Below, piece by piece: positions 1,936-49,510 of a DNA stretch of 60,261 nt. The notes below the pieces were generated by a model. The model saw nothing but the letters and a program-made list of their open reading frames with translations. It was not told where the DNA came from and did no database searches. Numbering within the stretch: position 1 is the stretch's first letter; every line of letters starts with the position of its first letter. The stretch is from Slackia heliotrinireducens (lineage in GTDB: Bacteria; Actinomycetota; Aquicultoria; DYIV01): contig DYIV01000001.1 of NCBI GenBank assembly GCA_020723435.1, positions 1 to 60,261 of the forward strand, given 5' to 3'. The position numbers were made by a program, and so were the translations under genes.

Positions 1936-2687
1936 CCAACCGCTCCCTCGAATGCGCCGAAGAAGCCGAGCCTCTCGCGGACCTCATCTTCCCCGAAGCC
2001 CTTCTCTTTCAGCGCCGACAGATACTCAGGAACATTGGCGTCGCGTGCCGGCCCCCGGCAGCCCCAGCAGCCCCGCCCGCCGGTCGGGCACGGCGCGTCG
2101 CAGCCCGCCTGCACGATGGGACCCAGACAGAGTTGGCCCCGATCGACCAGGCAGATGTTGAAGCGCTGCTTGCACTCGACGCAAACCGGATAGGCCGGGA
2201 AGGAGAAGGCGACATCCAGGACCACGTGCTGCACGATCCGCTCGACCTCCGCCTTGTTCACCGGGCATCCAGGGATGGCCAGATCGACCTCAACGACATC
2301 ACCGACCGCGCGGACCTCAGAGGTCTCCTTGGGCTTGTCGCCGTAGACCTCACGGTTCGCCTCACCGAGATCGAAGGTATTCTTGAGCCGATTGACGCCG
2401 CCGTAGCAGGCGCAGGTGCCCAGCGCGACGACCACACCAGCCCTGTCACGAATCTGCCGCAACAAAGCCTCCTCGTCGGCGCGACTGATCGCCCCTTCGA
2501 TCAGAGCGATCTCGTAGTCGTCGCCGGCGTCCGTCATCACCTCTCGAAAAGCGACGACCTCGACGGCGGCCAAGAAGTCGACCAGGGTCTCCTCCTTGTT
2601 GGCCAGCTGCAGCTCGCACCCCTCGCAGCCGGTGAAGTCGAAGACCGCGATCTTCGGGCGCTTCGGCTGTATTCCCAAATACTGCAC
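1932..2687 (-). CDS. hydD: [NiFe]-hydrogenase small (delta) subunit, group 3 type
   Basis: FDFTGCEGCELQ, GTCACYGG and GCP motifs plus a C-terminal Cys cluster (CVECKQRFNICL..CLGP..AGCDAPCP..GRGCWGC), typical of the short group 3 small subunit. Confidence 0.85.
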   Translation of the reverse strand: MQYLGIQPKRPKIAVFDFTGCEGCELQLANKEETLVDFLAAVEVVAFREVMTDAGDDYEIALIEGAISRADEEALLRQIRDRAGVVVALGTCACYGGVNRLKNTFDLGEANREVYGDKPKETSEVRAVGDVVEVDLAIPGCPVNKAEVERIVQHVVLDVAFSFPAYPVCVECKQRFNICLVDRGQLCLGPIVQAGCDAPCPTGGRGCWGCRGPARDANVPEYLSALKEKGFGEDEVRERLGFFGAFEGAVG

Positions 2688-2696
2688 GCGCTCCCC

Positions 2697-3605
2697 CTAG
2701 ATCGATTCTTTCAGATTCATGACCGTCCAGTAGTCGAAGACCGGGCCGCCTATGCACGTGTAGGTCGAGCCGATGTTGCAGCGGCAGCACTTGCCCATCC
2801 CACAGTGCATGCGCCTCTCCAGCGAGACATAGATGCGATGCATAGGCACGCCCATGTCGCTGAGCCTGTTGCAGATGAACTTGAACATCACCGGCGGGCC
2901 GCAGACAATCGCGTACGTGTCATCGGGATCGACATCGATCGCATCGAACAGCTTCGTGATCAAGCCGACCTGGCCCGTCCACCCGTCGTCCGGCCGCTCC
3001 ACGATGATCCGCAGATCGCAGCCGTAGATCCGCTCCCACTGCTTGTACTCGAAATCGAAGAGGAGCTGTCCGGGGTCGGCCGTGCCGTAGAGAATGTGCA
3101 CGTTGCGATAGTCCGGCCGGTTCTGGGTGACGTGAAAGATCGGAGCGCGCAGGGGCGCCAGGCCCAGGCCTCCCGCGATGAGCAGCACGTCGCTTCCGAC
3201 CATCTGATCCATCGGAAAGTGCGTTCCGAACGGACCGCGAATCCCGACCCGGGCGCCCGGCTGGGCGCTGTGGAGAACGCCGGTCACCGTCCCCGCCTTG
3301 CGGATGCACAGCTCGATATAGCCGCGGATCGACGGATCGCCGGCGATGGAGACGGGAATCTCGCCGAAGCCCGGCACCTCCAGCATCACGAACTGGCCGG
3401 GCAGGAAGGTAAACCGCTGCCGCTCGGCCGCATCGAGGATTCTGATGTGGAACAGCTTCTCCCGATCGGTCAGCGGCGTGATGTGCGCGATCTGGGCCTT
3501 GAAGTTCTTCTCCACCGGCATGAGGCGATTGCGCTGGTTGAAGTCGACCGGCGCGCGCATGTCGGCGAGCTTCTCGATGTCGAAAGGATGGATCGTCGTG
3601 TTCAC
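2697..3605 (-). CDS. hydG: hydrogenase gamma subunit, FAD/NAD(P)-binding oxidoreductase with C-terminal 2Fe-2S (AsrB/PyrK-like)
   Basis: PGQFVMLEVPGFGEIPVSI, GPFG, LLIAGGLGLAPL, CGPPVM and C-terminal CGMGKCCRCN. I place the start at GTG 3603-3605, preceded by GGAGGAG and overlapping the upstream stop as GTGA. The 419-aa track ORF has a spurious N-terminal extension. Confidence 0.85.
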   Translation of the reverse strand: MNTTIHPFDIEKLADMRAPVDFNQRNRLMPVEKNFKAQIAHITPLTDREKLFHIRILDAAERQRFTFLPGQFVMLEVPGFGEIPVSIAGDPSIRGYIELCIRKAGTVTGVLHSAQPGARVGIRGPFGTHFPMDQMVGSDVLLIAGGLGLAPLRAPIFHVTQNRPDYRNVHILYGTADPGQLLFDFEYKQWERIYGCDLRIIVERPDDGWTGQVGLITKLFDAIDVDPDDTYAIVCGPPVMFKFICNRLSDMGVPMHRIYVSLERRMHCGMGKCCRCNIGSTYTCIGGPVFDYWTVMNLKESI

Positions 3606-4645
3606 AGGCGCTCCTCCCTCTGAAGATCGCCGATGACCTCCGCCGGGTGTATCCCGACCAAGCAGGCGCGCCCGCAGCGGTTGCAGCCCACGCACTTGGG
3701 CTCGTCGTATGACTCGACGAAGCCGCGATGCTGGTGGTAGAAGCGGTACTTCAGCCGCGTCTTGCGGTCGGGCCGGAAGTTGCGCCCGCCGGAGACCTCC
3801 GCGAAATCGACGATGGTGCAGGCATAGAGCCGTTTCGACTTGCTCCCTGTCTTCCAGTCCATCGAGGCGCGTTCCTCGACGCCGTAGCAGTAGCAGGTCG
3901 GGCAGGACATCGCGCAACTGCCGCAGCTCAGACACTTCTCGCCCCACTTGGTCCACACTTCGGACTCGAACTCCATGTCCAGCAGGTTCGGCAGGTCCTG
4001 GATGTCCAGATCGGTAGTGAACTGCTCGGTGATGCGGTGGCGAACGGCCTTGAAGGCCTGCGTGTCGGCGTCGGAAACGTCTTGGGTCTTGACCTGGCCG
4101 AGCATGCTGTACCCGCGCGACGACTTGATCTCCACGAGATACGTCTCGCCCAGATCGGTCAGGAACAGATCGAAGCCGTGCGTCACCGTGTCGGCTCCGA
4201 CCGCGTGACAGAATCCGCCGTCACACGGCTCGTGGTCGATTCCGACGACGAACGTGTTCTGCCGGCGCGACACGTAGTACGGGCTCGGGAAGACATCCCG
4301 CGCCAGAACCTTGTCCAGCTTCAGCAGCCCGTTGATGTCACAGGCGTGCAGGCCGAGCAGGATGCGCGGCATGGCTCTGTAGCCGATCTCCTGCCCCCAG
4401 TCACCGGCCTCGAAGGTGTACGTCGATAGGTTCTCGCGATACGGCAGGAAGTAGGTCTTGGCGGAATGAGCGGTCGTTTCATAGTTGAGATCGATCTCGT
4501 CAAAGGACTCCACCGGGAGGTACTCATGGATCGGATCACCGTGTACGTCGGACTCGACGCGCGTCGGGGCGACCACTTCGTTCGACTCGAGCATGATCCC
4601 GACGAGCTTCTCGAATTCGTCTTTCGAAACGGTCTTGAACAGCAT
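3602..4645 (-). CDS. hydB: hydrogenase beta subunit, 4Fe-4S dicluster protein (AsrA-like)
   Basis: CLSCGSCAMSCPTCYC and CVGCNRCGRACLVG ferredoxin-type motifs. It is the first gene of the operon. The start is taken at ATG 4645 (MLFKTVSKDEFEKL...), not the upstream ATG of the track ORF. Confidence 0.8.
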   Translation of the reverse strand: MLFKTVSKDEFEKLVGIMLESNEVVAPTRVESDVHGDPIHEYLPVESFDEIDLNYETTAHSAKTYFLPYRENLSTYTFEAGDWGQEIGYRAMPRILLGLHACDINGLLKLDKVLARDVFPSPYYVSRRQNTFVVGIDHEPCDGGFCHAVGADTVTHGFDLFLTDLGETYLVEIKSSRGYSMLGQVKTQDVSDADTQAFKAVRHRITEQFTTDLDIQDLPNLLDMEFESEVWTKWGEKCLSCGSCAMSCPTCYCYGVEERASMDWKTGSKSKRLYACTIVDFAEVSGGRNFRPDRKTRLKYRFYHQHRGFVESYDEPKCVGCNRCGRACLVGIHPAEVIGDLQREERL

Positions 4646-31488: not shown

Positions 31489-34400
31489 CTATCGTACGAC
31501 AAAGTATCGGATCGGACTCCACGTTCCCAGGTGACAGGCACCGCCATGATAAGCTCTCACGTACCACCTGCCGGCGTACGGAAGACGGTAGCGGAGCCGG
31601 TACCTGGCGTAGCCATAGTAGTTGTAGTTGGTCGCGTATCTGATCGCGTAGCGCTTCCAGAGGTAGCGGCCGCGGTAGCGAATCCTTCGATAGAAATACA
31701 GCCTTGTGTAGCCGGAATGCCACGGCTTCAGATAGCCGTAGACGTAGAAGTTGCGCCCTCGGACGGGACTGGACGAGGCGGTCCACGGTCTGCCCAGGTA
31801 GGCGCGACAGCTCACAGTGGCCGTGGATGAGATCGACGGACCGTACGCCGGAGTGCCGGTGAAGCGAAGCTGAAGAAGGGTCCTCGCCGCTATCGTAACC
31901 GTCGTTTCGTATCGTGTGGTTGCCGGGTTGTAGGTCGCGGTGGCCTCGCGAGTCCAGCTCGACCCGTCGGGACTTCTCCACAGAGTCACGTCCTGATCCG
32001 CGAGAGTCTCCTCGACCGACCTTGGTCCGCGCGGGCTGATGGGAGACCCGCTCCCGACGGACTTGAGCGTGCCGACCACGGGCACCTTGTCTCCGTAGTT
32101 CCAGTTGCGGTTGCCGCCGACATCGATAGTGAGCGTCGTCGGGCCCGAAGGCGTCGCGGTCGCCGTCATCGGGAGACTGCTGTTGGCGGCGGAGTCCATA
32201 ACGAAGATGGTGTAATGGTACTTCTTGCCGTTGACCACAGACGCGTCAATCGTCGCTTCGTCGGCATCCTCGTAGATGCGGATCTGGTCGCCGCTGGGAA
32301 CGGGCGAGACGGCGAAGGTGGTATCGGAGCGAAGAATCCTTACCGACGAAAAGTCGATGGGCGGATTGCTCCAAGATAGATCGACCCGTTCATCTCCTGC
32401 GATTGCGGAGAAACCGCTGACCGGCTCGGGCGGGGTGGAGTCAGCGAGAAGAACCGCGACCTGGGCATTCGAGAAGCCTCTGGTCGCCACGACCAGATCC
32501 GGCCGGCCGTCGATGTTAAGGTCGCTGGCGACGACGTTCCCCGTGTACCACGTGTTGGCGGGCCAGGTAGTCTCGCTGCTGAAGTCGCCGGCGCCATCGC
32601 CGAGCAGGACGCTGACATATGCGGGCTCGGTATCGCTGGGAACGACGAGATCGTCACTGCCGTCGCGATTGAGATCGGCAACGGTGACAGCCGAAGCCGA
32701 TTCTCCGGCAGTGAGCGTTGCCGGATCGCTGAAGGCTCCCGTCCCGTCTCCGATGAGCACGAAGACTCTGCCGGCGGTGTGCTGTGCCACGGCCAAGTCC
32801 TTGTTGCCGTCGCGATTGAAGTCGCCCACTGCGACGTCACAAAGGTAGTCTTCCCTGACCTCGAAGGCGGTGGGAGCGCCGAACCCACCGCTTCCATCGC
32901 CCAGAAGAACAGCGACACTCTGGCCGGTATAGTTCGCCGCAACCAAGTCAGTCTTCCCGTCGTCGTTGAGGTCGGCCGCCTTCAAGCCGTAGGGCTCGTA
33001 GATGGCGGAGAACCTGTTGGGGGCGCCGAAGCCCCCCATCCCGTCACCCAGAAGGACGGAGATGTCCCACGAGTAGGAGTTGCCGGTCGCCAAATCAGGC
33101 AAGCCGTCTCGGTCGAAATCAGCGATGACGACGCTCTTGGGACCGGTCGAGCCTGCTCCGATGGTGAAGTTCGCCGCAGCGCCGAAGCCGCCCGACCCAT
33201 TGCCAAGGAGCACGGACACGTTGTTAGAGTCCCGGTTGGCGACGGCCAGGTCCTGTGCTCCGTCGCGATTGACATCGCCGACCGCCACGGCTGCGGCCCA
33301 GTCCCCTGTCCCGAAGGTAGTCCCCGCTGCAAGGCCGCCACTCCCGTCGCCGAGAAGGACGGACACGTTGTCGGCCATGCTGTTGGATACGGCAAGATCA
33401 GGCCTGCCATCTCTATTGAAATCGCCCTCGGCAATGGAATCGGCGCTCGCGTTGGCGCCGTCCGGGTAGTTGACCGCAGCCTCGTAGCCCGCGCCCTGAG
33501 CCAGACTCGTCGTGTTCATCAGCACCGAGATGCTGTCCGAGCCGCGATTGGCGACCGCGGCGTCCGGCTTGCCGTCGCCGTTGACGTCCCCCAGCGCGAT
33601 GCCCGCCGGAATCCCTCCCGGTGTGGTAGCGAAGTACGAGGGAGCCGAGAACCCGCCCACGCCGTCGCCGACCAGCACAGCCATGTTCGACGTCGAGCCG
33701 TCGGCGGCAACCAGGTCTTGGTTGCCGTCACGGTTGAGGTCGCCAACGGCCACGCTGTTGGGATTGGTGCCCGCTCCCGCACTGAAGGATACCGCCGCCG
33801 AGAAGGAGCCTGAGCCGTCGCCGAGCAGCACTGACAGGTCGCTCGAGTTTACGTTCGCCGTGCCAACGTCGATCTTGGCGTCCCCATTGAAGTCTCCCAG
33901 CGCTACAGAGTGAGGATTCACGCCGACGGTGAACGTCGTAGGAGCCGAGAAAGCGCCCGCGCCGTCTCCGAGCAGAACACAGATGCGGTTGCCCCAATAG
34001 TCCGACGCGACGATATCCTGCTTCCCGTCACGGTTGATGTCCCCGGCCGCCAGTGAAGACTGGCCGCCGTCGGCCGTATGGCTCGTCGGTGCGGAGAAAC
34101 CACCGGCGCCATCGCCCAGGAAGACAACGACCTTGTCAGAGGCGTTTGCGACCGCAAGATCGGTCTTTCCGTCGCGATTGAAATCGGCTGTGTCGACGCC
34201 GGCTGCATCGGCGCCAACATCAAGGTTTGCAGGAGCGCCGAAACCCCCGGCGCCGTCTCCCGAGAGGACGGAGACGGTCCGCGACGTGAGGTTGGATACG
34301 GCAAGATCGGTCTTTCCGTCGCGATCGAAGTCGCCCGGAGCTACGCAGTAGGCTCCGGCCTGCGCCTCTGCGGTGGATGTTGCGGAGAAGCCGCCGGACC

Positions 34401-34665
34401 CGTCACCCAGCAGAATGGAGACATCACCCGACGTGGCGTTGGGAACCGCAATGTCCGGCCTGCCGTCCGAGTTCAGATCCGAAATCGCCGGAGTCCTTGG
34501 GCTCTGGCCGACGGAGAGGGTGGCCTCCGGAGCGAATGCCGGTGCCTGTTGGGCTCCTGCTCCGCCCGATCGTGCCAGGACGACAACCAGGATAAGCAGC
34601 GTCGTCATGAGAAAGAGCGAAACCCACCTTGGATTCGCGCGATTGGAGAGAGCTGACCGCGTCAC
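31489..34665 (-). CDS. large secreted FG-GAP/VCBS-repeat protein (14 repeats) with FN3-like domain and Arg/Tyr-rich C-terminal domain
   Basis: It has a signal anchor, then 14 occurrences of the [GAS]D[FLVI][ND]x[DG][GA]xxD[LIV] calcium-loop motif, each followed by V(L/F)LGDG(S/A)GGF. That is enough for two 7-bladed propellers. The C-terminus is described in the findings. Confidence 0.85.
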   Translation of the reverse strand: MTRSALSNRANPRWVSLFLMTTLLILVVVLARSGGAGAQQAPAFAPEATLSVGQSPRTPAISDLNSDGRPDIAVPNATSGDVSILLGDGSGGFSATSTAEAQAGAYCVAPGDFDRDGKTDLAVSNLTSRTVSVLSGDGAGGFGAPANLDVGADAAGVDTADFNRDGKTDLAVANASDKVVVFLGDGAGGFSAPTSHTADGGQSSLAAGDINRDGKQDIVASDYWGNRICVLLGDGAGAFSAPTTFTVGVNPHSVALGDFNGDAKIDVGTANVNSSDLSVLLGDGSGSFSAAVSFSAGAGTNPNSVAVGDLNRDGNQDLVAADGSTSNMAVLVGDGVGGFSAPSYFATTPGGIPAGIALGDVNGDGKPDAAVANRGSDSISVLMNTTSLAQGAGYEAAVNYPDGANASADSIAEGDFNRDGRPDLAVSNSMADNVSVLLGDGSGGLAAGTTFGTGDWAAAVAVGDVNRDGAQDLAVANRDSNNVSVLLGNGSGGFGAAANFTIGAGSTGPKSVVIADFDRDGLPDLATGNSYSWDISVLLGDGMGGFGAPNRFSAIYEPYGLKAADLNDDGKTDLVAANYTGQSVAVLLGDGSGGFGAPTAFEVREDYLCDVAVGDFNRDGNKDLAVAQHTAGRVFVLIGDGTGAFSDPATLTAGESASAVTVADLNRDGSDDLVVPSDTEPAYVSVLLGDGAGDFSSETTWPANTWYTGNVVASDLNIDGRPDLVVATRGFSNAQVAVLLADSTPPEPVSGFSAIAGDERVDLSWSNPPIDFSSVRILRSDTTFAVSPVPSGDQIRIYEDADEATIDASVVNGKKYHYTIFVMDSAANSSLPMTATATPSGPTTLTIDVGGNRNWNYGDKVPVVGTLKSVGSGSPISPRGPRSVEETLADQDVTLWRSPDGSSWTREATATYNPATTRYETTVTIAARTLLQLRFTGTPAYGPSISSTATVSCRAYLGRPWTASSSPVRGRNFYVYGYLKPWHSGYTRLYFYRRIRYRGRYLWKRYAIRYATNYNYYGYARYRLRYRLPYAGRWYVRAYHGGACHLGTWSPIRYFVVR

Positions 34666-39537: not shown

Positions 39538-42174
39538 CTACCACACTGTCAGACGGTTGTAGCCGAGGCGTCGCTGACCGTTTCCGGCCAGATCGACGGC
39601 GTAGACGAAGAATCGATAGGTTCCCCGTCGCAGGCCGCACTTGAACCGGGTTGAGAGCCACCTGTTGGTCAGGCGGCCGGGGAGATACAGGGTCTTCACC
39701 AATCGGCCCCGGAGTGTCTTGATCTTGATCCTGACCGTGGCCTTGGGACTCAAGGCGTCGGTCACCTTGTACCTGAGCGTCGCCCAGCGGAATCTGCGCA
39801 CGCTCGATCTGTACGGTGCCCAAGTCTTCGGCCCGCTTCTGTCGAGCACGATCGTGTCCGACGCATCGAGCGTCTCTCCGTCCCAGTTCTGGTACTGCGC
39901 GTACACGGTCTTCGTGCCGTCGGGTATGCCGTAGCCGGCGTCACCGTACCACAACTGGTAGGCCATGGCCGGCTGGTACGCGAGCCAGGAGTGGAGCGGC
40001 AACTCCGCCTGGTCCTCGGACAGCCGCATCCACTGCGCGTCCGCGACGTTGGAGTTGACGATGATATCTATCGACCGGGTGTAGACCGCACCGCCGTTGA
40101 GCGCGAGCGTCCCCGTCGGCGTGGGCGTATCCGAGGGAATGGTCAGAGAGTAGACGCCCTTGGGCCAAGTTCCGGCGAACAAGGTCCGGTCAGTCGCGTA
40201 TGCCGGGCTCACCGCGACGCATCCCACGCTCTCGCCGGCGATATTCCCCGAGATTTCACGGTACGAGTCTTCACCGGCGGCGCGGCGGAAGACGCCGGAG
40301 CCCCAGTAGTCGGAGGAGAGACCGCCGAACATCGTGGAGTCGCTTGCGTAGTCTGGCGAGAAGGCGACGCTGAACGGCGCCATTTGAGCGTAGCTGCCCC
40401 ACGTCGTTCCCCCGTCGGTCGACATGGCCCAATCGGCGACGACGGTCTGGTCGGCCGCGTAGTTCGGTGACACGGCGATGGAGTTGAATCCCTGGGAGTA
40501 GGAGTGCACCGTGTCCCAGTCCCCTCCGCCGTTGGTGGTTCTTACGATATCGTCCCCGGCGATGGCGAAGAGGGTCTGGTCCGAAGCGAAGTTGGGAGAG
40601 ATCGCGAGGTCATCCGCCCACTGGCCCCTCGGGAACCACGAGCCGCCGCCGTCTGTCGACCTGTAGATCCAGCCCTGGGAATACCCCTTCGACGCGCTGA
40701 CACAAAAGAGCGTCGTGTCGCTGGGGTAGTTGGGCGAGATGACGAGGCTGTTGACGGCGTCGTACAGACCGTTGTTGACCGGGCTCCATCCGCCTCCCCC
40801 GTCCGTCGACTTGAACGCCCCATCGCTCCACGTGCCGACGAACACCGTGTGGTCGCTGCCGAACGCCGGCGAGACGGCGATCGCCTGAACGCTGGAGCTC
40901 ACGACGTCCGACCCGACCAACTGCCAGGAAGACGCGCCGTCAGCCGATCTGAACAGACCGGCCTCCGTGCCGGCGAAGAGCGTGCTGTCCGAGCCAAAAC
41001 CGGGAGACGCGGCCAGGACGCCTACGCCCATCTTGGCCACACCCGCGTTCGCTTCCGTCCAGGAGCCGGCTCCGTCTTGCGTCCTGAAGATGCCGGCCAT
41101 AGTCCCGGCGAGAACGGTCTGGTCGGAGGCGAAGGCGGGAGAGGGCGCCAGCGCCGAGACGTTGCCGCTCTTCAGGCCGGTGCTCGCCGCCGACCAGTTG
41201 TCCCCTCCGTCGGTGGATAGACTCACACCTCGGCGCCATCCACCCGCCAGGACGGTTTGGTCGGAGGCGAAGGCGGGAGATACTGCGACCGAGGACATGT
41301 CATCCTCGGGCAAGGTGGTCGTCATTTCGGTCCACGTGTCGCCCCAGTTCGTGGAGCGGTAGAGGCAGGAGATCTCATCGGGGCCCTCCCAACGCACCAA
41401 CACCACGAATGCGGTGCCGTCGTCGCGGAAATCCGGTGACAGGGCCAATCCGCCCGCGCAGTAGTATTCGAATCCGAGATCGATGGGGCTCCAGCTCGTG
41501 CCGGCGTTCGTCGACTTGAACAGCACACCGTTGGTGGCGGCCAGAACCGTGCGGTCCGTCGTGAACCCGCCGGAGACGCCTATCGACCACACCGACACGC
41601 CTTCGTCCATGCCGCTGTTGATCTCGGTCCAGCTCGCGCCGCCGTTGGTCGACCTGAACATCCCCGCGTCGGTGCCGGCGAAGATCGTCCTGTCGACGGC
41701 GAAGGCGGGCGAGATGCCCATCGCATAGACGCTTCTCAGCGGCGTGAGCCCGGCGCCTACGGCGATCCAGGTGGTTCCTCCGTTGACTGACTTGAGTATG
41801 CTGCCCTCACTACCCCACACGCCCGCGAAGATCGTGTGGTCCACCGCGAAGTTCGGCGAGACGGCGATGCACTGGGGACCCCCCAAGCCGACGGGACTGC
41901 CGGGAGCGCCCACGGCCAGCTCGGTCCAAGAGGCTCCGTCGTCGGTGGATTTGTACAAGCCGTAGCACATGGCAAAGGCCGTGTGATCAGCAGCGAAGTT
42001 GGGGGAGATCGCAATGGACTTGACCCATCCGCCGGAAGGCCCTCCCGACGTCCAGGTGCCCACGCCGGCGAGAGCGACGGCCGGAAACGCCGTCGTCAGG
42101 AGGGCCGCCGCAGCGGCGAGCAAGGTTGCCCGGACCCGCCATGAAGCCTTCCGCACCTCGAGCCGCCTCCTCAT
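39538..42174 (-). CDS. large secreted BNR/Asp-box (sialidase-like, Ycf48-like) beta-propeller repeat protein with C-terminal Ig-like domains
   Basis: It has about 12 S-x-[DN]-G-G-x-[ST]-W Asp-boxes, interleaved with about 14 copies of SP.F..D.T.FAG. It has a signal peptide (ATLLAAAAALLTTAFPAVALA). The C-terminus has the FlgD-Ig-like pattern (TVRIKIKTLRGRLVKTLYL...GTYRFFVYAVDLAGN). The start is uncertain (ATG 42174 versus TTG 42252). Confidence 0.8.
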   Translation of the reverse strand: MRRRLEVRKASWRVRATLLAAAAALLTTAFPAVALAGVGTWTSGGPSGGWVKSIAISPNFAADHTAFAMCYGLYKSTDDGASWTELAVGAPGSPVGLGGPQCIAVSPNFAVDHTIFAGVWGSEGSILKSVNGGTTWIAVGAGLTPLRSVYAMGISPAFAVDRTIFAGTDAGMFRSTNGGASWTEINSGMDEGVSVWSIGVSGGFTTDRTVLAATNGVLFKSTNAGTSWSPIDLGFEYYCAGGLALSPDFRDDGTAFVVLVRWEGPDEISCLYRSTNWGDTWTEMTTTLPEDDMSSVAVSPAFASDQTVLAGGWRRGVSLSTDGGDNWSAASTGLKSGNVSALAPSPAFASDQTVLAGTMAGIFRTQDGAGSWTEANAGVAKMGVGVLAASPGFGSDSTLFAGTEAGLFRSADGASSWQLVGSDVVSSSVQAIAVSPAFGSDHTVFVGTWSDGAFKSTDGGGGWSPVNNGLYDAVNSLVISPNYPSDTTLFCVSASKGYSQGWIYRSTDGGGSWFPRGQWADDLAISPNFASDQTLFAIAGDDIVRTTNGGGDWDTVHSYSQGFNSIAVSPNYAADQTVVADWAMSTDGGTTWGSYAQMAPFSVAFSPDYASDSTMFGGLSSDYWGSGVFRRAAGEDSYREISGNIAGESVGCVAVSPAYATDRTLFAGTWPKGVYSLTIPSDTPTPTGTLALNGGAVYTRSIDIIVNSNVADAQWMRLSEDQAELPLHSWLAYQPAMAYQLWYGDAGYGIPDGTKTVYAQYQNWDGETLDASDTIVLDRSGPKTWAPYRSSVRRFRWATLRYKVTDALSPKATVRIKIKTLRGRLVKTLYLPGRLTNRWLSTRFKCGLRRGTYRFFVYAVDLAGNGQRRLGYNRLTVW

Positions 42175-42381
42175 CGCGCACGCCGTGGCCGGAACTCGTC
42201 TCGCGATCACTTCAACCACTATTAGTATACGGCGTCGGTGCGGCGATGGCAACGCCAGAATGCCTGTTCAGAACGTATGTAGGCCGGTTGCCGCTCGCTC
42301 GTCACCTCATGCGTCCGGCTTCAGGCCTTCAGTATTCGCCTGCCTCCGGCCTGCCCCGGCGTGCCCCCGGCCGGCCGCGCT

Positions 42382-45300
42382 CTACCTCGCGCGGAAGTAG
42401 CGAATCGAGCTGTACTTGGCCGAGTGATCGTAGCAGTAGTGGTAAGCCCGGGCGTAATAATAGCCGGCGTACCTCACCCGGTATGAGAGCTTGTAGGACG
42501 TGACCCCGGCGGCTAGCACGACATTCCTGTATCCGTACCGCACCCACCGCCGCCGCACCTTGCGATAGAAGTAGACGCGAACGGTGGACGCGCCCCAATG
42601 CGCGGGAACGACCGAGCCTCTCACGGTGAAGTGCCGGTTGCGCCTGACTATGCTGGGCGTGCTCGGACGTCCAACCGTCGCGGAGATCAGGCGGGGATAA
42701 GCCGCCGTGGTGGCTACGGTGCTCCAGGTCCCGTGGCTGTTGCGCGCGAACGCGCTGAAGTACTGGACGACGTTGTTCGGCAGACTGGTTGCCAACAGCG
42801 ACCCGCCCACACCTTCGTAGACCTGTGTCCCGTCCGACGGCGACGTCGCGTAGCCCGCCATCGAGCGAAGGATTCTCGTCGTGGCGAAATCGCCGGTCGG
42901 GTTGGTCCATGTCAGCCACGCCCGCGCGTTGCCACGCGTCGCTCGGAAGTTCGTGACCGGGCTGCAGGGCGGAGGCGGCACATAGCTGGCCTTCCAGTGG
43001 AGCGCGACGGTTCCCGTGGCGCCGTCGGACCCGTCCACCGCGACGCGGTAGGTCTGGGTCGGCGAGACGGTGATCTCAATCGCGCTCTGCGCGACCGACT
43101 GCGTGTCGTCGTTGCTTGCGACCTCGCTCAGGCTCCCGACGGCCGAACCGGTGTAGACGCCGAGCAGCGTGTTGAAGTCGCTGCCCATGGTGTCGACGGT
43201 GAGTGTCCCGTCGCCCGACGGAGTGAAGCGGTACCACAGAGACCTGCCGCCGGCGTTGCCCGCGTGGTTCGGCTCGCCCGGTTCCTTGGTCGCGTCGGCG
43301 TTGGTGCCGGTCACCGTTCCTTCGGCGCCAAGAAGCGACCGGGCATCCGAGAAGCCGTCATTGTCGGCGCCCAGCTCCGACCAATCCCAGTTGAGCACCA
43401 ACCCACCGGCGGCGCCTCCGACGCCATCGACCGCGATCACGTACGTCTGCCCGGCGGCCACGCGACAGACCGCGGCGCTCTGCAGACTCGTGCCTGCGTT
43501 GTCGTTGCTCGTCCGGCGGGTGAGGTCATCGACCTCCGTGCCCGTGTAGACGCCGAGCAGGGTGTTGAACTCGCTGCCGAACGTGTCGATCGACAGCGTA
43601 CCGTCCGCCGGCGCGGTCCAGGCGTACCAAACCGACGCGCCGCCACTTTGCTCGGCATGATCCGGCTCGTCCTCCTCCTTGGTGGCACCCACGCTCGAGC
43701 CGGAGACCGAACCCGCCGTCTCCGTCAGGACCCGGGCGCTCGAGAAGTCGTCGTTTGGTGGGGCGGCTCCCCCACTCGACCAGTGCAGGACGACGTCCCC
43801 GAAATCGTCGACCCAGTAGCCGTCGACCGCGATGTGGTAGGTCGTTCCGGCTGTCGCCGAGAACGTCACCTGGCTGGACACGCCCGCGCCGCTGTCGTCG
43901 TCGCTGGTGACTTCGGCGAGCGCGCCGACGCTTGAGCCGGTGTAGACCCCAAGAACCGTATCGAAGTCGCTTCCCTGGGTGTCGAACGTCACATCCCTGC
44001 TGGTCGTGGGCGTCCAGACGTACCACACGGATGCCTGGCCGTCCTGTTGGTTGTGGTATGGCTCCAGCGGTTCCTTCGTGGCGCCGATCGTCGACCCCGT
44101 GACGGTTCCGCCGCCCTCGGCGAGCAGTTGGGCGTCGACGAAATCATCGTTCGCGGGCCGGTCCGGGACGCGCCAGTGCAGCGCCACGTCCCCGGTCTGG
44201 CCTCGGTTTCCGTCGATGGCGATCTTGTACGCAGTTCCGGCCTGGGCGGAGAAGACCGCCTTGCTCTGCAGCCTGCCGCCTGAGTCGTTGTCGTCTGTCA
44301 CATACTCCAAAGAGCCAAAGCTGGTTCCCGTGTAGACCCCGAGCAAAGTATCGAAGTCGCTTCCGTAGGTGTCGATGATCACCTGGCAATCGCTCGCGGG
44401 CGTCCACGAGTACCACAAGGACGACCGGCCGCGCTCTCCGGCGTGCTCGGGCTCCGATGCCTCCCTGCTGGCGCCGACGTTGCTGGCGGTCACCGTGCCG
44501 GCCGCTCCGGGCATGGCCTGCGCGTTCGCGAAGTCGTCGTTGCCGGGCCCGCCCGGGTCGGCATGGAAGGCCCACCTGATCGTAGCGTCGCCGCGCGCTC
44601 CGTTCTTGCCGTCGACCGCTATGCGATACGTCGATCCGGCCGTCGTCCGCAGTGTCACGCGGCTCTGACCGGAGTCGTTTGCGTCGTCGTTGCTGGCCAC
44701 TCGCACGAGCGCCTCGACGCTCAAGCCTCGATAGACTCCGAGCACGGTGTCGAGCCCGCTTTCCAGCGTGTCGATCAAGAGAGAGCCGTCGGCCGGCGTC
44801 GTCCAGACGTACCACATCGAGCCACCACCTGCATTGCCGGCGTGCGCGGGCTCCGACTCCTCCTTGGTCATCTCGGTGTTTGAACCGGTCGAGACCCCGG
44901 TCGCTCCGTCCAGCCCTTCGGCGTCCGCGAACATGTCATTCGCGACCGGCGACGCGAGGTGCCAGCCGAGGACGACGCTGCCGGACTCGGCGCTCCAGTA
45001 GCCCCACCGCTTGTCGACCGCGATCATGTAGGTCTGTCCCGCCTGCGCCGGCAGACGAATGCGAGCCGGGCTGGCGAGACCGGTGCCGAGTGCCCTGCCG
45101 ACCAGAGTCAGGCCGCTGAGACTGGTGCCCTTGTAGATGCAGAGCGCCGCGGCGAAATCGGTTCCCGCGGTATCCAGCTCGACAACACCGCTCGACGGGG
45201 CGGTCCACGAGTACCACACCGAGCTCGTGGCCGGGCCGTAGCCGGAGTGCGCCGGCTCCGATGTCTCAACGGTCGCGCCCAGATTGCTCCCGGTGACCGT

Positions 45301-48300
45301 GCCCTCATCCCCAGAAACCAGCTGGGCCGAGGCGAAGTTGTCGTTGGGCGGCGGGGTCCGAGCGTGCCAATGGAGCGCCACGTTGCCGACGAGCCCGCCG
45401 CGTCCATCCACCGCGATCTGGTAGGTCTGGCCCAGCGTCACTTGCATGACCGCCCGGCTTTGGAGAGTGCCAAGGGCGTCCTGGTTATTCGCCACCTGTG
45501 TCAGAGCGTTCACGGCGGAGCCGGTGTACACGCCGATCTGGGTGTCGAAGTCGCTCCCGAACGTGTCGATTACGAGATATCCACTGCTGAGCGCCGTCCA
45601 CTTGTACCAGATCGAGGCGCCGCCCGTGTTGCCCGCGTGGTTCGGCTCGCCCGATTCCTTCGACCCTCCGACGTTGGAGCCGGTCACGGTGCCGTCGTTG
45701 CCCGTCAGTTCGGTGCGGGCGGAGAGATCATCGTTTGCCGGCGGACCGCCCGCCGTAAGCCTCCAGCGCAGGGTCGACCGGCCGCGCCGCCCGTTCCAGC
45801 CGTCGACGGCGATCCGGTACGCCTGCCCGGACGTGACGCGGAAGCTCACTCTGCTCCAACCGCTGCCGGCAGCGTCGTCATCGCCGGCCAGAGTCGCAAG
45901 CGAGTTGACCGCCGTGCCGGCATACGCCCCGAGCAGCGTGTCGAAGTCGCTGCCGACGGTGTCGAAGGTGACCGTGCCGTTGGCCGGAGCCGTCCAGTTG
46001 TACCAGATGGAGGCGCCTCCGGCGTTTCCGGCGTGATTCGGCTCGCCGGCCTCCTTGGTCGCCGTGAAGTTGGAGCCGGTCTCCGTGCCCTCCGAGCCTG
46101 CGATCGCAGTGGCCACCGAGAAGTTGTCGTTGGTGATGCGAGGCAGGAGACTCCAGTGCAGGCCGACCTGGCCGGCCTGCCCGTCCCGCCCGTCGATGGC
46201 AACGCGATACGTCACGCCGCTGGTGACCTCGACCGCCACCAGACTCTGGTCGCCCTCGAAGTCGTCGTTCGCGCCCACCTCGGTGAGTCCCCCAACGGTC
46301 GAGCCGGTGTAGACACCCAGGAGCGTGTCGAAGTCGCTGTCGTATGTGTCGATGACGAGCAGGCCGTTGCTCGGGGCAGTGAACCTGTACCACAGAGAAG
46401 ATCCGCCTGTGTTTGCGGCGTGGTCCGGTTCGCCCGCCTCCTTGGTGGCGCCGACGCTGGACGCGCCTGTCGTGCCCTCGGCGCCACCCAGCACCTCCGC
46501 CGCCCCAAAGTCGTCGTTGAGCGCGGCGGGGCCGGTATTCCAGTGCAGGAAGATGTCTCCGACGCTCTCGTCGTAACCATCCACCGCCACCTTGTAGACG
46601 ACGCCCGGACTGGCCCTGAACCGCACGAGACTCGTGGAGTCACCGCCGCCCTCGTCGTCACTTGCCACCTCAGTGAGGCTGTCGACGGCCGTGCCGGTGT
46701 AGACGCCGAGCATGGTGTCGAAGTTGGAGCCGATGGTGTCGATGGTGACGACCTTGGTCGCATCGGAGGTGAAAGTGAACCACAGTGAGGTGTCACCATG
46801 GTATCCCGCGTGATACGGCTCGCCGTTTTCTCTGGTCGCGCCCTCATTCGAGCCGGTCCAGCTTCCGGAGTCGCCGGGGAGGGCCTCAGCGTTGGCCATG
46901 TCGTCGTTGGCGGGAGAGCTCTTCCACTCGAGTCCAAAGGCGCCACACCCTCCGTCGTAGCCGTCGACGGCCACGTAGTAGGTGACGCCGGCCGTCGCGT
47001 CAAAGCCGGCCGAGATACTATCGCCGGCTATCTTGGTCAGCGAGCCGACATCGGACCCGACGAAGACGCCTACCAGGCAGTCGAATTCATCCGACCACGT
47101 GCCCAAGGAGACGTTGCAGGTGTCCGGAGCCGTCCAGGAGTACCACACGGAGGAATTCCCGGGATCCCAGGCGACGATCTCGGGCTCCGACGGCTCCTTG
47201 CCCGCCCCCATGGTCGAGCCTTCGATCGACCCGTAGCGCCCGACCAGAGGCCGCGCGTCGGCGAAGTAGTCATTGTCCGGACACGGATAGGTCCTGTAGT
47301 GCAAGGCGAGAAGACTACCCATGTCTCCGGCGTAACCGTCTACGGCGATCCTGTACGTCGTCCCCGCGGTCGCGTGCACGATCACGCGCTCGTAGTCATC
47401 GTACGAGTAGTTATCGTTGGCCTGACCTATCAGTGTCAGGGCGTCGACCGAGTCCCCCGTGTAGACGCCGAGCACCGTGTCGAAGTAGCTTCCGTCGGTG
47501 TCGAAGGCGACCACCGTGTCGGTCGTGGCCGTCCACGAGTACCAGACTGAGGCCCCTCCCGAGCTCCACCCATGGTCGGGCTCGCCCGTCTCCTTGGTCG
47601 CTCCCATGTTGTTGCTGGTAACGGTCCCCTCGTCGCCCGAGAGCACCTCGGCCAGATCGAAGTTGTCGTTTGAGGGGACGGCGCTCGAGAAGCGCCAGTG
47701 CAGCTCGACGTTGCCCATCTCCCCGTACTTGCCGTCGACGGCGACTCGGTAGGTGGTACCGCTGGTGGCGTGAAAGGCGAAGCGGCAGGCCGTCGTCTCC
47801 TCGAAGGCGTCGCTGTTCTCCGCGACCGTAGAAAGCTCTCCGTAGGCTGACCCGGTGTAGGCGCTCATCAGCGTGTCGAAATCGCTGCCGAAAGTGTCGA
47901 ACATGACGGCGCCGTCGGCCGGGGCGGTCCAGTAGTACCAGACCGATGCCGATCCGTAGCCCCAGTACTCGCCGTGCAGAGGCTCGTTCACCTCACGCGT
48001 GCCGCCGAGCGTCGTGCCCGTGACGGTCCCTTCGTTGCCGGAGAGCATCTGCGCGTCGGCGAGGTTGTCGTTGTCCGGCTTGAAGAAGTGCCAGTGGAGC
48101 AGGGCGGTGCCGGCGTCGCCGCTGCCTCCATCCACGCCGATGTGATAGGTCGTGCCCGACGTCACTCTCGAGACGATGCGGCTCTGCCTGACGCCCTCGG
48201 CGTCGTCGTTCGCGTCGAGCTCGTCGAGCGTGTCGACCGTCGAGCCGGTGCACAAGTCGATCAGCGTGTCGTAGTTGCTGCCAAACGTGTCGACGACGAG

Positions 48301-49353
48301 CGCGCCGCCGGAAGGCGCGGTCCAGGAGTACCAGATCGATCTTTCAGGTCCCCACGCGCCGAAGACGGGCTCTCCGGCCTCGCGGGTAGCGCCGAGGTTG
48401 GAGGTGGTCAGCGTGCCGTCGAGCGTGCCGAGCGCGATTCGATTGGCGAAGTTGTCGTTGGCCGGGGTGACGGCGAAGCGCCAGTGGAGGGCCACGTTGC
48501 CCATCTCGCCGTCCTTCCCGTCTACGGCAATCCTGTAGGTGGTTCCGGCGACGGCCGTGAAGGCCACCCGGCTCTGGTAGTTGCCGGCCTCCCAATCGTA
48601 GTCGCCGCTGGCCCCGTCCTGGACCGCCGAGAGGGCGGAGACGCTCGTCCCCGTGTACACCCCCAGCACGGTGTCGAAGTCGCTGCCGAACGTGTCGACG
48701 GCGATGCCGCCATTGCTGGGAGCGGTGAAGCGGTACCAGACCGAGGATCCTCCCGCATTCCAGCCGTGGTTGGGCTCCCCGGTCTCCTTGGTGGCTCCGA
48801 CATTGTGGCCGGTGATGGTCCCCTCGTTCGTGGCGAGCGCCGTGGCCGCGGAGAAGACGTCGTTGCCGGGCGCCACGGTCAGACTCCAATGGAGGAGCAC
48901 CTGGCCAACGTCGGCGTCGGATTGATCGGCGTAGCCGTCCACCGCCACCCGGTAGGTCTGGCCGGCGACGACCTTGACCCCGACGCGGCTCTGGCACGTC
49001 CCGTCTGCCTGATCGTTGGTGTCGAGGACGGTCAGAGCGCCCACGCTCGTGCCGGTGTAGACCCCAAGCACAGTGTCGAAGTTGCTGCCGAACGTGTCGA
49101 CGACCAGAAGCCCGCTCGCCGGTGCCGTCCAGCTGTACCACACCGAGGCGCCCCCTGAGTTGCCGTTGTGATCCGGCTCCCCCGCCTCCTCGGTGGCGAG
49201 CACGTTCGTGCCGGTCGCGAAGCCCGCGGCGCCGCTGATCACCTCGGCCGACGAGAAGTTGTCGTTTGCCGGAGCGGCCCAGGCTGAGGAGGCACCCACA
49301 GCCAAGCCGAAGAGACACAGAAAGATGACGATGGCGAAGGCCCGACGAAGCAT
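42382..49353 (-). CDS. giant secreted protein (2,323 aa from ATG 49353): 16 tandem PPC-like modules, an FN3-like domain and an Arg/Tyr-rich C-terminal domain
   Basis: Signal peptide MLRRAFAIVIFLCLFGLAVGASSAWA|AP. It has 16 modules with the consensus P.ND.F..A..L.G..G...G.N.GATKE.GEP.H.....G.SVWY.WTAP..G....DT.GS.FDT.LGVYTG..V..L......D.....QS.V.F....G.TY.IAVDG..G..G...LHW. Confidence 0.85.
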   Translation of the reverse strand: MLRRAFAIVIFLCLFGLAVGASSAWAAPANDNFSSAEVISGAAGFATGTNVLATEEAGEPDHNGNSGGASVWYSWTAPASGLLVVDTFGSNFDTVLGVYTGTSVGALTVLDTNDQADGTCQSRVGVKVVAGQTYRVAVDGYADQSDADVGQVLLHWSLTVAPGNDVFSAATALATNEGTITGHNVGATKETGEPNHGWNAGGSSVWYRFTAPSNGGIAVDTFGSDFDTVLGVYTGTSVSALSAVQDGASGDYDWEAGNYQSRVAFTAVAGTTYRIAVDGKDGEMGNVALHWRFAVTPANDNFANRIALGTLDGTLTTSNLGATREAGEPVFGAWGPERSIWYSWTAPSGGALVVDTFGSNYDTLIDLCTGSTVDTLDELDANDDAEGVRQSRIVSRVTSGTTYHIGVDGGSGDAGTALLHWHFFKPDNDNLADAQMLSGNEGTVTGTTLGGTREVNEPLHGEYWGYGSASVWYYWTAPADGAVMFDTFGSDFDTLMSAYTGSAYGELSTVAENSDAFEETTACRFAFHATSGTTYRVAVDGKYGEMGNVELHWRFSSAVPSNDNFDLAEVLSGDEGTVTSNNMGATKETGEPDHGWSSGGASVWYSWTATTDTVVAFDTDGSYFDTVLGVYTGDSVDALTLIGQANDNYSYDDYERVIVHATAGTTYRIAVDGYAGDMGSLLALHYRTYPCPDNDYFADARPLVGRYGSIEGSTMGAGKEPSEPEIVAWDPGNSSVWYSWTAPDTCNVSLGTWSDEFDCLVGVFVGSDVGSLTKIAGDSISAGFDATAGVTYYVAVDGYDGGCGAFGLEWKSSPANDDMANAEALPGDSGSWTGSNEGATRENGEPYHAGYHGDTSLWFTFTSDATKVVTIDTIGSNFDTMLGVYTGTAVDSLTEVASDDEGGGDSTSLVRFRASPGVVYKVAVDGYDESVGDIFLHWNTGPAALNDDFGAAEVLGGAEGTTGASSVGATKEAGEPDHAANTGGSSLWYRFTAPSNGLLVIDTYDSDFDTLLGVYTGSTVGGLTEVGANDDFEGDQSLVAVEVTSGVTYRVAIDGRDGQAGQVGLHWSLLPRITNDNFSVATAIAGSEGTETGSNFTATKEAGEPNHAGNAGGASIWYNWTAPANGTVTFDTVGSDFDTLLGAYAGTAVNSLATLAGDDDAAGSGWSRVSFRVTSGQAYRIAVDGWNGRRGRSTLRWRLTAGGPPANDDLSARTELTGNDGTVTGSNVGGSKESGEPNHAGNTGGASIWYKWTALSSGYLVIDTFGSDFDTQIGVYTGSAVNALTQVANNQDALGTLQSRAVMQVTLGQTYQIAVDGRGGLVGNVALHWHARTPPPNDNFASAQLVSGDEGTVTGSNLGATVETSEPAHSGYGPATSSVWYSWTAPSSGVVELDTAGTDFAAALCIYKGTSLSGLTLVGRALGTGLASPARIRLPAQAGQTYMIAVDKRWGYWSAESGSVVLGWHLASPVANDMFADAEGLDGATGVSTGSNTEMTKEESEPAHAGNAGGGSMWYVWTTPADGSLLIDTLESGLDTVLGVYRGLSVEALVRVASNDDANDSGQSRVTLRTTAGSTYRIAVDGKNGARGDATIRWAFHADPGGPGNDDFANAQAMPGAAGTVTASNVGASREASEPEHAGERGRSSLWYSWTPASDCQVIIDTYGSDFDTLLGVYTGTSFGSLEYVTDDNDSGGRLQSKAVFSAQAGTAYKIAIDGNRGQTGDVALHWRVPDRPANDDFVDAQLLAEGGGTVTGSTIGATKEPLEPYHNQQDGQASVWYVWTPTTSRDVTFDTQGSDFDTVLGVYTGSSVGALAEVTSDDDSGAGVSSQVTFSATAGTTYHIAVDGYWVDDFGDVVLHWSSGGAAPPNDDFSSARVLTETAGSVSGSSVGATKEEDEPDHAEQSGGASVWYAWTAPADGTLSIDTFGSEFNTLLGVYTGTEVDDLTRRTSNDNAGTSLQSAAVCRVAAGQTYVIAVDGVGGAAGGLVLNWDWSELGADNDGFSDARSLLGAEGTVTGTNADATKEPGEPNHAGNAGGRSLWYRFTPSGDGTLTVDTMGSDFNTLLGVYTGSAVGSLSEVASNDDTQSVAQSAIEITVSPTQTYRVAVDGSDGATGTVALHWKASYVPPPPCSPVTNFRATRGNARAWLTWTNPTGDFATTRILRSMAGYATSPSDGTQVYEGVGGSLLATSLPNNVVQYFSAFARNSHGTWSTVATTAAYPRLISATVGRPSTPSIVRRNRHFTVRGSVVPAHWGASTVRVYFYRKVRRRWVRYGYRNVVLAAGVTSYKLSYRVRYAGYYYARAYHYCYDHSAKYSSIRYFRAR
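42985..49275 (-). repeat. 16 diverged tandem coding repeats of about 393 nt (about 131 aa) inside the giant gene
   Basis: Counted from the 16 N-D-x-F/L/M module starts in the translation. 6,291 nt divided by 16 gives about 393 nt. The repeats are diverged at the protein level, so they are not recent duplications. Confidence 0.85.
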
Positions 49354-49465
49354 CTCTACCACTCCCCTGCTCGCTCTCGCGGAGACCCCTCGAGTTCCCA
49401 TGCCCCCCTCCGCGGACACCCCCGGGTACCAGTGCTCGCTTCTACGGACACCCACGCATTCTGTG

Positions 49466-49510
49466 GGCAACAAAGAGACAAAGCCGACCGCACCTGGTGC
49501 GAATCGGCTT
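49466..49510 (-). terminator. intrinsic terminator downstream of rho
   Basis: The minus sense reads AAGCCGA-TTC-GCACC-A-GGTGC-GG-TCGGCTT followed by TGTCTCTTTGTT. Confidence 0.5.

Follow-up and report, generated by a model that had tools for sequence, protein, structure and literature searches.

In a 60,261-nucleotide stretch of contig DYIV01000001.1 from an assembly labeled Slackia heliotrinireducens (GCA_020723435.1; henceforth the window), two large proteins, which we call A and B, end in copies of the same strongly cationic, tyrosine- and arginine-rich domain with a predicted immunoglobulin (Ig)-like fold. This domain belongs to a large family that is absent from the domain libraries we searched. 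Its members are almost always the last domain of their proteins, occur on otherwise unrelated passengers of extracellular type, are at times present as tandem copies or in clusters of paralogous genes, and are highly charged specifically when they are terminal. On the strength of these features taken together, we propose, with moderate confidence, that the terminal ~105 residues constitute a C-terminal surface-retention module, i.e., a non-covalent anchor to an anionic polymer of the cell envelope.

The first of the two proteins, protein A (1058 aa; 31489..34665, minus strand; identified from its open reading frame (ORF) and translation, with FG-GAP_3 matched at E=1.7e-97), proceeds from a signal-like N-terminus through ~13 FG-GAP repeats, an FN3-like segment and a Big_3_5-like Ig domain to the cationic C-terminal domain (copy A: residues 950-1058, 31492..31818, minus strand). 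The second, protein B (2363 aa; 42382..49473, minus strand; PPC, E=7.5e-18; GBD_T9SS_assoc, E=1.9e-19), comprises a putative signal peptide, 16 PPC/galactose-binding-like modules of ~131 aa each, an FN3-like segment and the cationic domain (copy B: residues 2263-2363, 42385..42687, minus strand). The presence of a shared Arg/Tyr-rich C-terminal domain on two giant proteins had been claimed in a first-pass annotation of the window, and it is real: the peptides quoted there are exact and constitute the last residues before the respective stop codons, with the region delimited for the first copy (31492-31794) corresponding to copy A minus its first strand. In composition-adjusted BLASTP the two copies show 42% identity over 106 aa (E=9e-8). 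Further, a hidden Markov model (HMM) of the family, built from database sequences alone with zero window sequences, matches copy A (E=2e-32) and copy B (E=3e-24), with no further match in any of the six reading frames of the window; hence, their similarity goes far beyond what chance or shared composition would produce. The estimate by hand that about one-fifth of copy A is Arg and another fifth Tyr also stands, the computed values being 18.8% Arg and 19.8% Tyr with a net charge of +21 (over 101 aa); copy B has 18.8% Arg, 15.6% Tyr and a net charge of +20 (over 96 aa). Outside the terminal domain, proteins A and B contain ~4% Arg and 2-4% Tyr, and the net charge of their acidic passengers is -59 and -167, respectively. 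The GC content at third codon positions in the two terminal domains (0.74 and 0.82) is the same as in the remainder of each gene, which argues that the reading frame encoding them is genuine.

An exhaustive profile search against 1.84 billion cluster representatives (clusters at the 50% identity level) recovered 1,880 representatives at E<=1e-3, of which 990 also passed the stricter limit of E<=1e-10, with proteins A (as P0027, from Met20) and B (as P0029, from Met41) among the matches. A word-indexed search had yielded just 2 matches with copy A alone and 23 with a four-sequence profile, all of them short fragments; this wrongly suggested that the family was small and its members short, a picture that the exhaustive search corrected. 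The search for a well-characterized family to which the domain might belong, a match that by the first-pass annotation would have told against its claim if the family had an unrelated role, came back empty: neither Pfam-A nor NCBIfam holds a match to the tails of A, B or 18 relatives, even at E<=10, a profile search of PDB sequences with the terminal domain returned nothing, and the motif GYLKPRH was not found in a literature search. The consensus of the family reads roughly aYLs.P.aPs...R.r.ftVyGYLKPRH..G...VriY.YR...g.W......A...nYs.YTKY.....LPyaGkWRvRAYH.D..Haat.S.yryvtVR. A genome scan, made with an alignment of 7 closer members and yielding loci biased towards the GYLKPRH and NYSSYTK subtypes, places the matches almost entirely in metagenome-assembled genomes (MAGs) of uncultured Actinomycetota, with labels including Coriobacteriia, Thermoleophilia, Rubrobacter, HGW-Actinobacteria-7 and bins named MFD... 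(which we take to be from the Microflora Danica survey); a few bins are labeled otherwise. Going by their names, the source MAGs appear to come from soil, sediment and groundwater. Even with this narrow search pattern, single genomes were found to carry at least 6-10 copies of the domain.

The position of the domain in its host proteins is strikingly uniform. Its end lies at most 5 residues from the C-terminus in 163 of the 167 retrieved proteins (the 150 best profile matches plus 17 further word-search matches, out of the whole family) and 0-4 codons before the stop in 47 of the 49 domain-carrying ORFs from 32 fetched loci. In A and B the stop codon follows directly after ...WSPIRYFVVR and ...YSSIRYFRAR, respectively, both ends falling within a β-strand of the folded domain; as had been noted at the outset, their translations end with no LPXTG, PEP-CTERM or GlyGly-CTERM motif and no hydrophobic tail segment or terminal transmembrane helix. 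The passengers to which it is attached are diverse: 79 full-length carriers contain 62 Pfam families, of which the 25 commonest are all of extracellular type, and the modules encountered include FG-GAP, BNR/YCF48, NHL, subtilase S8, SGL, β-helix, cadherin-like, InlB B-repeat, caspase-like and PPC domains. An N-terminal hydrophobic signal-like region is present in 89 of 117 long members, with many of the others appearing to be truncated gene calls. Thus, C-terminal placement on putatively secreted proteins extends well beyond the window.

Tandem copies of the domain, 2-8 per protein, occur in 25 of the 167 proteins, and genes bearing the C-terminal tag are often consecutive, forming clusters of 2-6. 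The longest of these is a paralogue array in which six consecutive genes each end in the domain (L025 627-12068); another locus has four consecutive tag-bearing genes together with one on the opposite strand (L011 1354-7857 and 10783-11598), while further loci show runs of two or three. Departures from the C-terminal rule are few. In L031 (9030-10997, plus strand) the domain is at the start of an ORF piece and is followed by 554 more residues. On long contigs there are ORF pieces of 108-224 aa consisting of the domain alone or with a short upstream stretch (L001 7743-8414, L002 7956-8339, L018 6001-6324 and L030 5899-6285), the piece of L001 following a GSDH gene. These exceptions may be frameshifts, pseudogenes or stand-alone domains.

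Cationic and aromatic surfaces are typical of adhesion to glycans, nucleic acids and surfaces, and proteases and putative adhesin-like repeats figure among the carriers, whose MAG names point to soil, sediment and groundwater. Hence, one might envisage the domain as directing proteins to anionic material external to the cell, such as extracellular DNA, acidic polysaccharides, humic matter or mineral surfaces in soil and groundwater, in the manner of a carbohydrate-binding or adhesion module. However, substrate-binding modules are not normally restricted to the extreme C-terminus, where this domain is found in ~98% of cases, and the use of one tag on many unrelated passengers, several per genome, better fits a localization device. 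We accordingly see an external target as unlikely.

A clue to function comes from the charge of the domain, which depends on where in the protein it is located. Terminal copies (n=165) have a mean net charge of +16 and 12% Tyr, as against +2.9 and 6% in internal tandem copies (n=36), +5 and 5% in the homologous Ig domain directly upstream (n=113), and -3 per 100 aa and 4% in the passengers (n=118). A net charge of at least +10 is seen in 152 of the 165 terminal copies, and in arrays of 7-8 copies the internal ones have net charges of -5 to +3 and merely 1-4% Tyr. Across members, Arg varies from 1-23% and Lys from 0-18%; since the two replace each other with their sum remaining steady at ~16%, it is charge that is conserved rather than Arg itself. 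Set side by side, the terminal and internal copies show neatly how a single fold has been recoded in nature for a task tied to its place in the protein, and the specificity of the charge for the terminal position leads us to favor a role in sorting or attachment. An ordinary structural Ig-like spacer, whose Arg/Tyr bias would simply reflect drift or the composition typical of the lineage, would sit well with membership of a generic Ig-like repeat superfamily and with the internal copies in long arrays, which resemble other Big-type spacers. However, such a spacer seems to us very improbable: members of one family, and even copies in one protein, differ in this bias according to their position (terminal +16 versus internal +3), it holds with either Arg or Lys as the basic residue, and the extreme C-terminal position is conserved in ~98%.

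The extreme asymmetry of charge within single proteins (passengers of -59 and -167 against tails of +21 and +20 in A and B, with passengers of the family at large also being acidic) raises yet another alternative, namely self-assembly: the cationic tail might bind the acidic passengers of neighboring molecules, or a separate acidic S-layer, to build a protein coat or matrix by charge complementarity. Against this, the passengers are too diverse to present one common docking surface and we found no lattice-forming features; hence, we consider such a coat improbable.

The β-sandwich postulated by the first-pass annotation is supported by structure prediction, with an AlphaFold2 model of copy A, computed from a 20-sequence alignment, showing a discrete domain of seven β-strands (predicted local distance difference test score (pLDDT) 91.8, predicted template modeling score 0.83). 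Foldseek searches against the PDB returned generic Ig-like neighbors alone, all with E>1e-3 and TM scores of 0.4-0.59, including the FnIII-like C-terminal domain of GH3 enzymes, antibody V domains, TapA and BslA; a specific structural assignment from the PDB was therefore dropped. The ancestry of the domain is better illuminated by its neighbor. In 114 of 127 relatives with enough sequence, a Big_3_5-like Ig domain is found directly upstream of the tail (in protein A: residues 840-949, 31819..32148, minus strand, close to neutral in charge), and profile–profile comparison with hhalign relates this upstream domain to the C-terminal family with a probability of 97.8% (E=9e-13). Relatives of the upstream domain in turn score 32.5 bits (best E=1.3e-7) and 22.9 bits against Big_3_5 (PF16640), for which the cut-off is 35.5, whereas the terminal domains of A, B and 18 relatives have no match to PF16640 at E<=10. 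Given its homology to an upstream domain with these sub-threshold matches, the terminal domain is, going by sequence comparison, probably a derived member of the Big_3_5-like Ig repeat superfamily, connected to PF16640 via the upstream domain alone.

The FN3-like segments of A (residues 745-839, 32149..32433, minus strand) and B (42688..42978, minus strand, adjoining copy B upstream) likewise align with each other (33% identity, E=2e-14 in composition-adjusted BLASTP). The label FN3-like is one of resemblance: no FN3 model matches the segments of A or B significantly, the FN3-type Pfam scores being weak (fn3_SORL1, E=0.2 in B; NDNF-FN3, E=0.24, and DUF4998, E=0.09, in A). Of the common two-domain ending that had been described for A and B, the similarity of both parts is thus borne out; their adjacency is not, as in protein A the ~110-aa Ig-like domain at residues 840-949 separates them. 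The accompanying rule that the cationic domain always follows an FN3-like domain has to be abandoned, with ~12-15 of the 167 sampled relatives possessing an FN3-like module and the usual upstream neighbor being the Big_3_5-like domain. The counts of FN3-like modules derive from iterations 1-2 of an iterated search with the protein B segment; by iteration 3-4 the search had strayed to the Big_3_5-like domain.

With its predicted ~100-aa Ig-like β-sandwich placed at the very end of numerous unrelated exoproteins in a genome, the family recalls the logic of the type IX secretion system (T9SS), whose C-terminal domain (Por_Secre_tail) is a cleaved export signal and not a charged binding module. 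By analogy, the present domain could be a secretion or sorting signal that is recognized and then removed by dedicated machinery, and the conserved motif R-A-Y-L-x-x-P-x-A-P at the junction upstream of it might be read in this light. Several points speak against this. No T9SS C-terminal domain model (Por_Secre_tail, type-B) in Pfam or NCBIfam matched the domains or 20 relatives, nor was such a domain among the Foldseek neighbors; the GBD_T9SS_assoc match of protein B falls in its passenger modules, outside the tail. Further, tandem copies are unusual for a sorting signal, there is no conserved processing or transport gene nearby in the 32 loci, and the carriers already have putative N-terminal signal peptides. 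Finally, the hosts are labeled Actinomycetota, a phylum from which a T9SS is not known, and T9SS genes are not in evidence. A removable sorting signal is, in our assessment, improbable.

Within the domain, the invariant hydrophobic residues of the strand regions (L40, W54, A62, Y73, W85, V87 and A89) alternate with positions rich in Arg, Lys and Tyr, a pattern suggesting that the latter residues are probably displayed on the exposed faces of both sheets. The family is further distinguished by motifs of its own, namely G-Y-L-K-P-R-H, W-R-x-R-A-Y-H-x-D-x-x-H and a terminal R/K. In the family alignment, the residues K31, R33, H34, Y67, Y70, H91, D93 and H96 are near-invariant and map to the B-C, D-E and F-G loops (window ~31531-31728). 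As these loops share a tip in the Ig-like topology, the eight residues are predicted to cluster there and might form a ligand-, metal- or phosphate-binding site; as the internal copies share this cluster, its role may be structural instead. D93 has been lost from both copies in the window, Gly taking its place in A and Cys in B, and each has a Cys in the F-G loop.

Returning to the retention module, we advance the following plausible mechanism of its action. Proteins bearing the tag would be exported via Sec by means of their putative N-terminal signal peptides, with the acidic passenger (β-propellers, proteases or adhesin-like repeats) projecting outward. The domain that emerges last from the translocon would present a surface of Arg/Lys and Tyr, with a net charge of ~+16 to +21, and would then be held non-covalently by an anionic component of the envelope through a combination of charge and stacking of Tyr on sugars. 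The likeliest target might be a phosphate- or uronate-containing wall glycopolymer, with an anionic lipoglycan or membrane head groups as the alternatives. The tandem copies and the many paralogues per genome would fit a general display system of uncultured Actinomycetota. Thus, of the earlier proposal of a module for cell-envelope attachment or sorting, the core gains support from the C-terminal position, the diverse secreted carriers and the terminal-specific charge, whereas the FN3 rule and the link to WecA that accompanied it do not hold.

Several observations weigh against this interpretation. A domain with a charge of +20 is not obviously an easy substrate for Sec, and the signal-like regions of the carriers were called by a crude rule. 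About 8% of the terminal copies are below +10, i.e., weakly charged, and the 167 proteins surveyed are a sample from a far larger family. In the 32 loci and the window, no conserved partner gene other than tag-bearing paralogues is found within ~6 kb of the domain genes, and no polymer-synthesis gene recurs in linkage with them in the 32 loci. The wecA-like gene of the window lies within a housekeeping run and hence gives no sign of a functional link. The groups that did recur and were considered as candidate partners across the 32 loci and the window proved to be generic ABC ATPases and artefacts that arose from reading the domain itself out of frame.

How does this family compare with the known means by which proteins are attached to the surface of monoderm bacteria? 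At E<=1 in Pfam, full-length A and B have none of the known attachment domains as listed in Table 1 of PMC5817068 (LPXTG, PF00746; LysM; WxL, PF13731; SH3b including GW, PF13457; SLH; CWB1; CWB2; SPOR; SLAP), matching just the FG-GAP, PPC or GBD families aside from hits at chance level; nor does any of these domains occur among the 25 commonest Pfam families of the 79 relatives. A parallel in the proposed working principle is offered by the GW domains (SH3-8, PF13457) of Listeria InlB and Ami and the basic SLAP or C-terminal wall-binding regions of Lactobacillus S-layer proteins, which are often in tandem and bind non-covalently to teichoic and lipoteichoic acids (PMC5817068 and general knowledge). 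Like the tail described here, these are basic C-terminal modules frequently present as tandem copies; in contrast to it, they have an SH3-like rather than an Ig-like fold, show no sequence match to it and belong to a different phylum. The WxL domain (PF13731) of Lactobacillales and Bacillales lies within the final 120-190 residues of a variety of extracellular proteins and binds the wall non-covalently (PMC5817068). The C-terminal placement on diverse exoproteins is common to both, and the tandem copies and gene clusters of the present family recall wall-binding repeats and the WxL clusters (PMC5817068), whereas it lacks the WxL motif and any Pfam match and differs in size, composition and taxa.

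The SLH and CWB2 domains similarly attach diverse exoproteins or S-layer proteins to secondary wall polymers in a non-covalent manner, usually as repeated modules; however, those are α-helical or Rossmann-like three-module units located at either the N- or the C-terminus, and they have no match here. Finally, with Big_3_5 (PF16640) and the bacterial Ig-like repeats the terminal domain shares a predicted all-β Ig-like sandwich of ~100 aa and tandem occurrence on surface proteins, while being set apart by the lack of a Pfam match at E<=10, its strictly C-terminal position, its strongly cationic and Tyr-rich character and its distinct motifs. Hence, we infer that the family belongs to the known general class of non-covalent surface-anchoring modules, built in this case on an Ig-like repeat, and that it adds to present thinking without upsetting it.

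If the domain is indeed an anchor, it would be the principal means by which a wide range of uncultured Actinomycetota of soil, sediment and groundwater display proteins on their surface. The surface proteomes of these lineages could then be predicted at once from a profile of the domain, whose occurrence would indicate the presence of an anionic wall polymer. Additionally, at ~105 aa the domain would make a small and stably folded tag, usable in surface display or in probes of wall polymers. More tentatively, and with rather less confidence than we place in retention as such, we conjecture that it is the address tag of a hitherto undescribed surface-display system of uncultured, mostly anaerobic Actinomycetota. 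Under this scenario, a neutral Big_3_5-like repeat would have been recoded, at the last position only, to give a domain coated with Tyr and Arg that binds an anionic wall polymer; in each genome, at least 10 unrelated exoproteins would rely on it instead of sortase/LPXTG, SLH or WxL anchoring; and the tip formed by K31/R33/H34, Y67/Y70 and H91/D93/H96 would be a ligand- or metal-binding site.

The N-termini of the two proteins in the window merit a note. The database gene call for protein A begins at Met20 (34608), and P0027 is identical to our translation from residue 20 onwards. With the longer, GTG-initiated form the signal peptide looks more conventional, as it then has a basic n-region: the putative Sec signal (34552..34665, minus strand), recognized from the translation, consists of this n-region and the hydrophobic WVSLFLMTTLLILVVVLA, followed by AGA/QQ. 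For protein B the database call begins at Met41 (49353), P0029 being identical from residue 41, and this start yields a classical signal (MLRRAF...AWA/AP) with an RR pair; the putative signal peptide, again read from the translation, is MLRRAFAIVIFLCLFGLAVGASSAWA/AP (49276..49353, minus strand).

Between A and B lies the gene for a third large secreted protein, protein C (904 aa; 39538-42252, minus strand), with BNR/sortilin-like β-propeller repeats in an acidic passenger. Its last 100 residues (39541..39840, minus strand) form another cationic tail, with 18 Arg, 7 Lys and a net charge of +23. This tail is unrelated to the Arg/Tyr domain family in hhalign comparisons (probability <1%), has no match in Pfam and retrieved no homologues in word searches. 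A single-sequence AlphaFold2 prediction has a mean pLDDT of 47, with the last 80 residues as β-strands at low to moderate confidence (pLDDT 55-83). That protein C, too, ends in a tail of such charge, though an unrelated one, suggests that this host makes general use of charge for C-terminal retention, with charge mattering above the particular family.

The window as a whole is core chromosome with 63.8% GC. Its genes include those for NiFe-hydrogenase subunits, RNase R, FtsEX, a split transketolase, PrfB, SecA, a WecA-like GT4, a deaminase, Upp, GlyA, Sua5, PrmC, PrfA, DUF1385, ThyX and Rho, among others. The three surface-protein genes are inserted in a run of housekeeping genes, the order over 27298-50986 (minus strand) being rho, B, C, thyX, DUF1385, prfA, prmC, sua5, A, glyA, upp, deaminase and wecA. 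The order rho ... prfA, prmC, sua5, glyA ... wecA is conserved in actinobacteria (e.g., Mycobacterium tuberculosis Rv1297-Rv1302), and the proximity of the wecA-like gene is thereby explained by synteny. The support that the first-pass annotation had drawn from WecA/TagO-like and glycosyltransferase (GT) neighbors accordingly falls away, all the more as no partner recurs in the 32 loci, and we set this linkage aside as unspecific. Towards the start of the window, adjoining genes on the minus strand (661-3956) encode the large subunit, the small subunit and a FAD/NAD-binding iron-sulfur subunit of a NiFe-hydrogenase, and this gene content points to a probably anaerobic or hydrogen-metabolizing lifestyle of the host.

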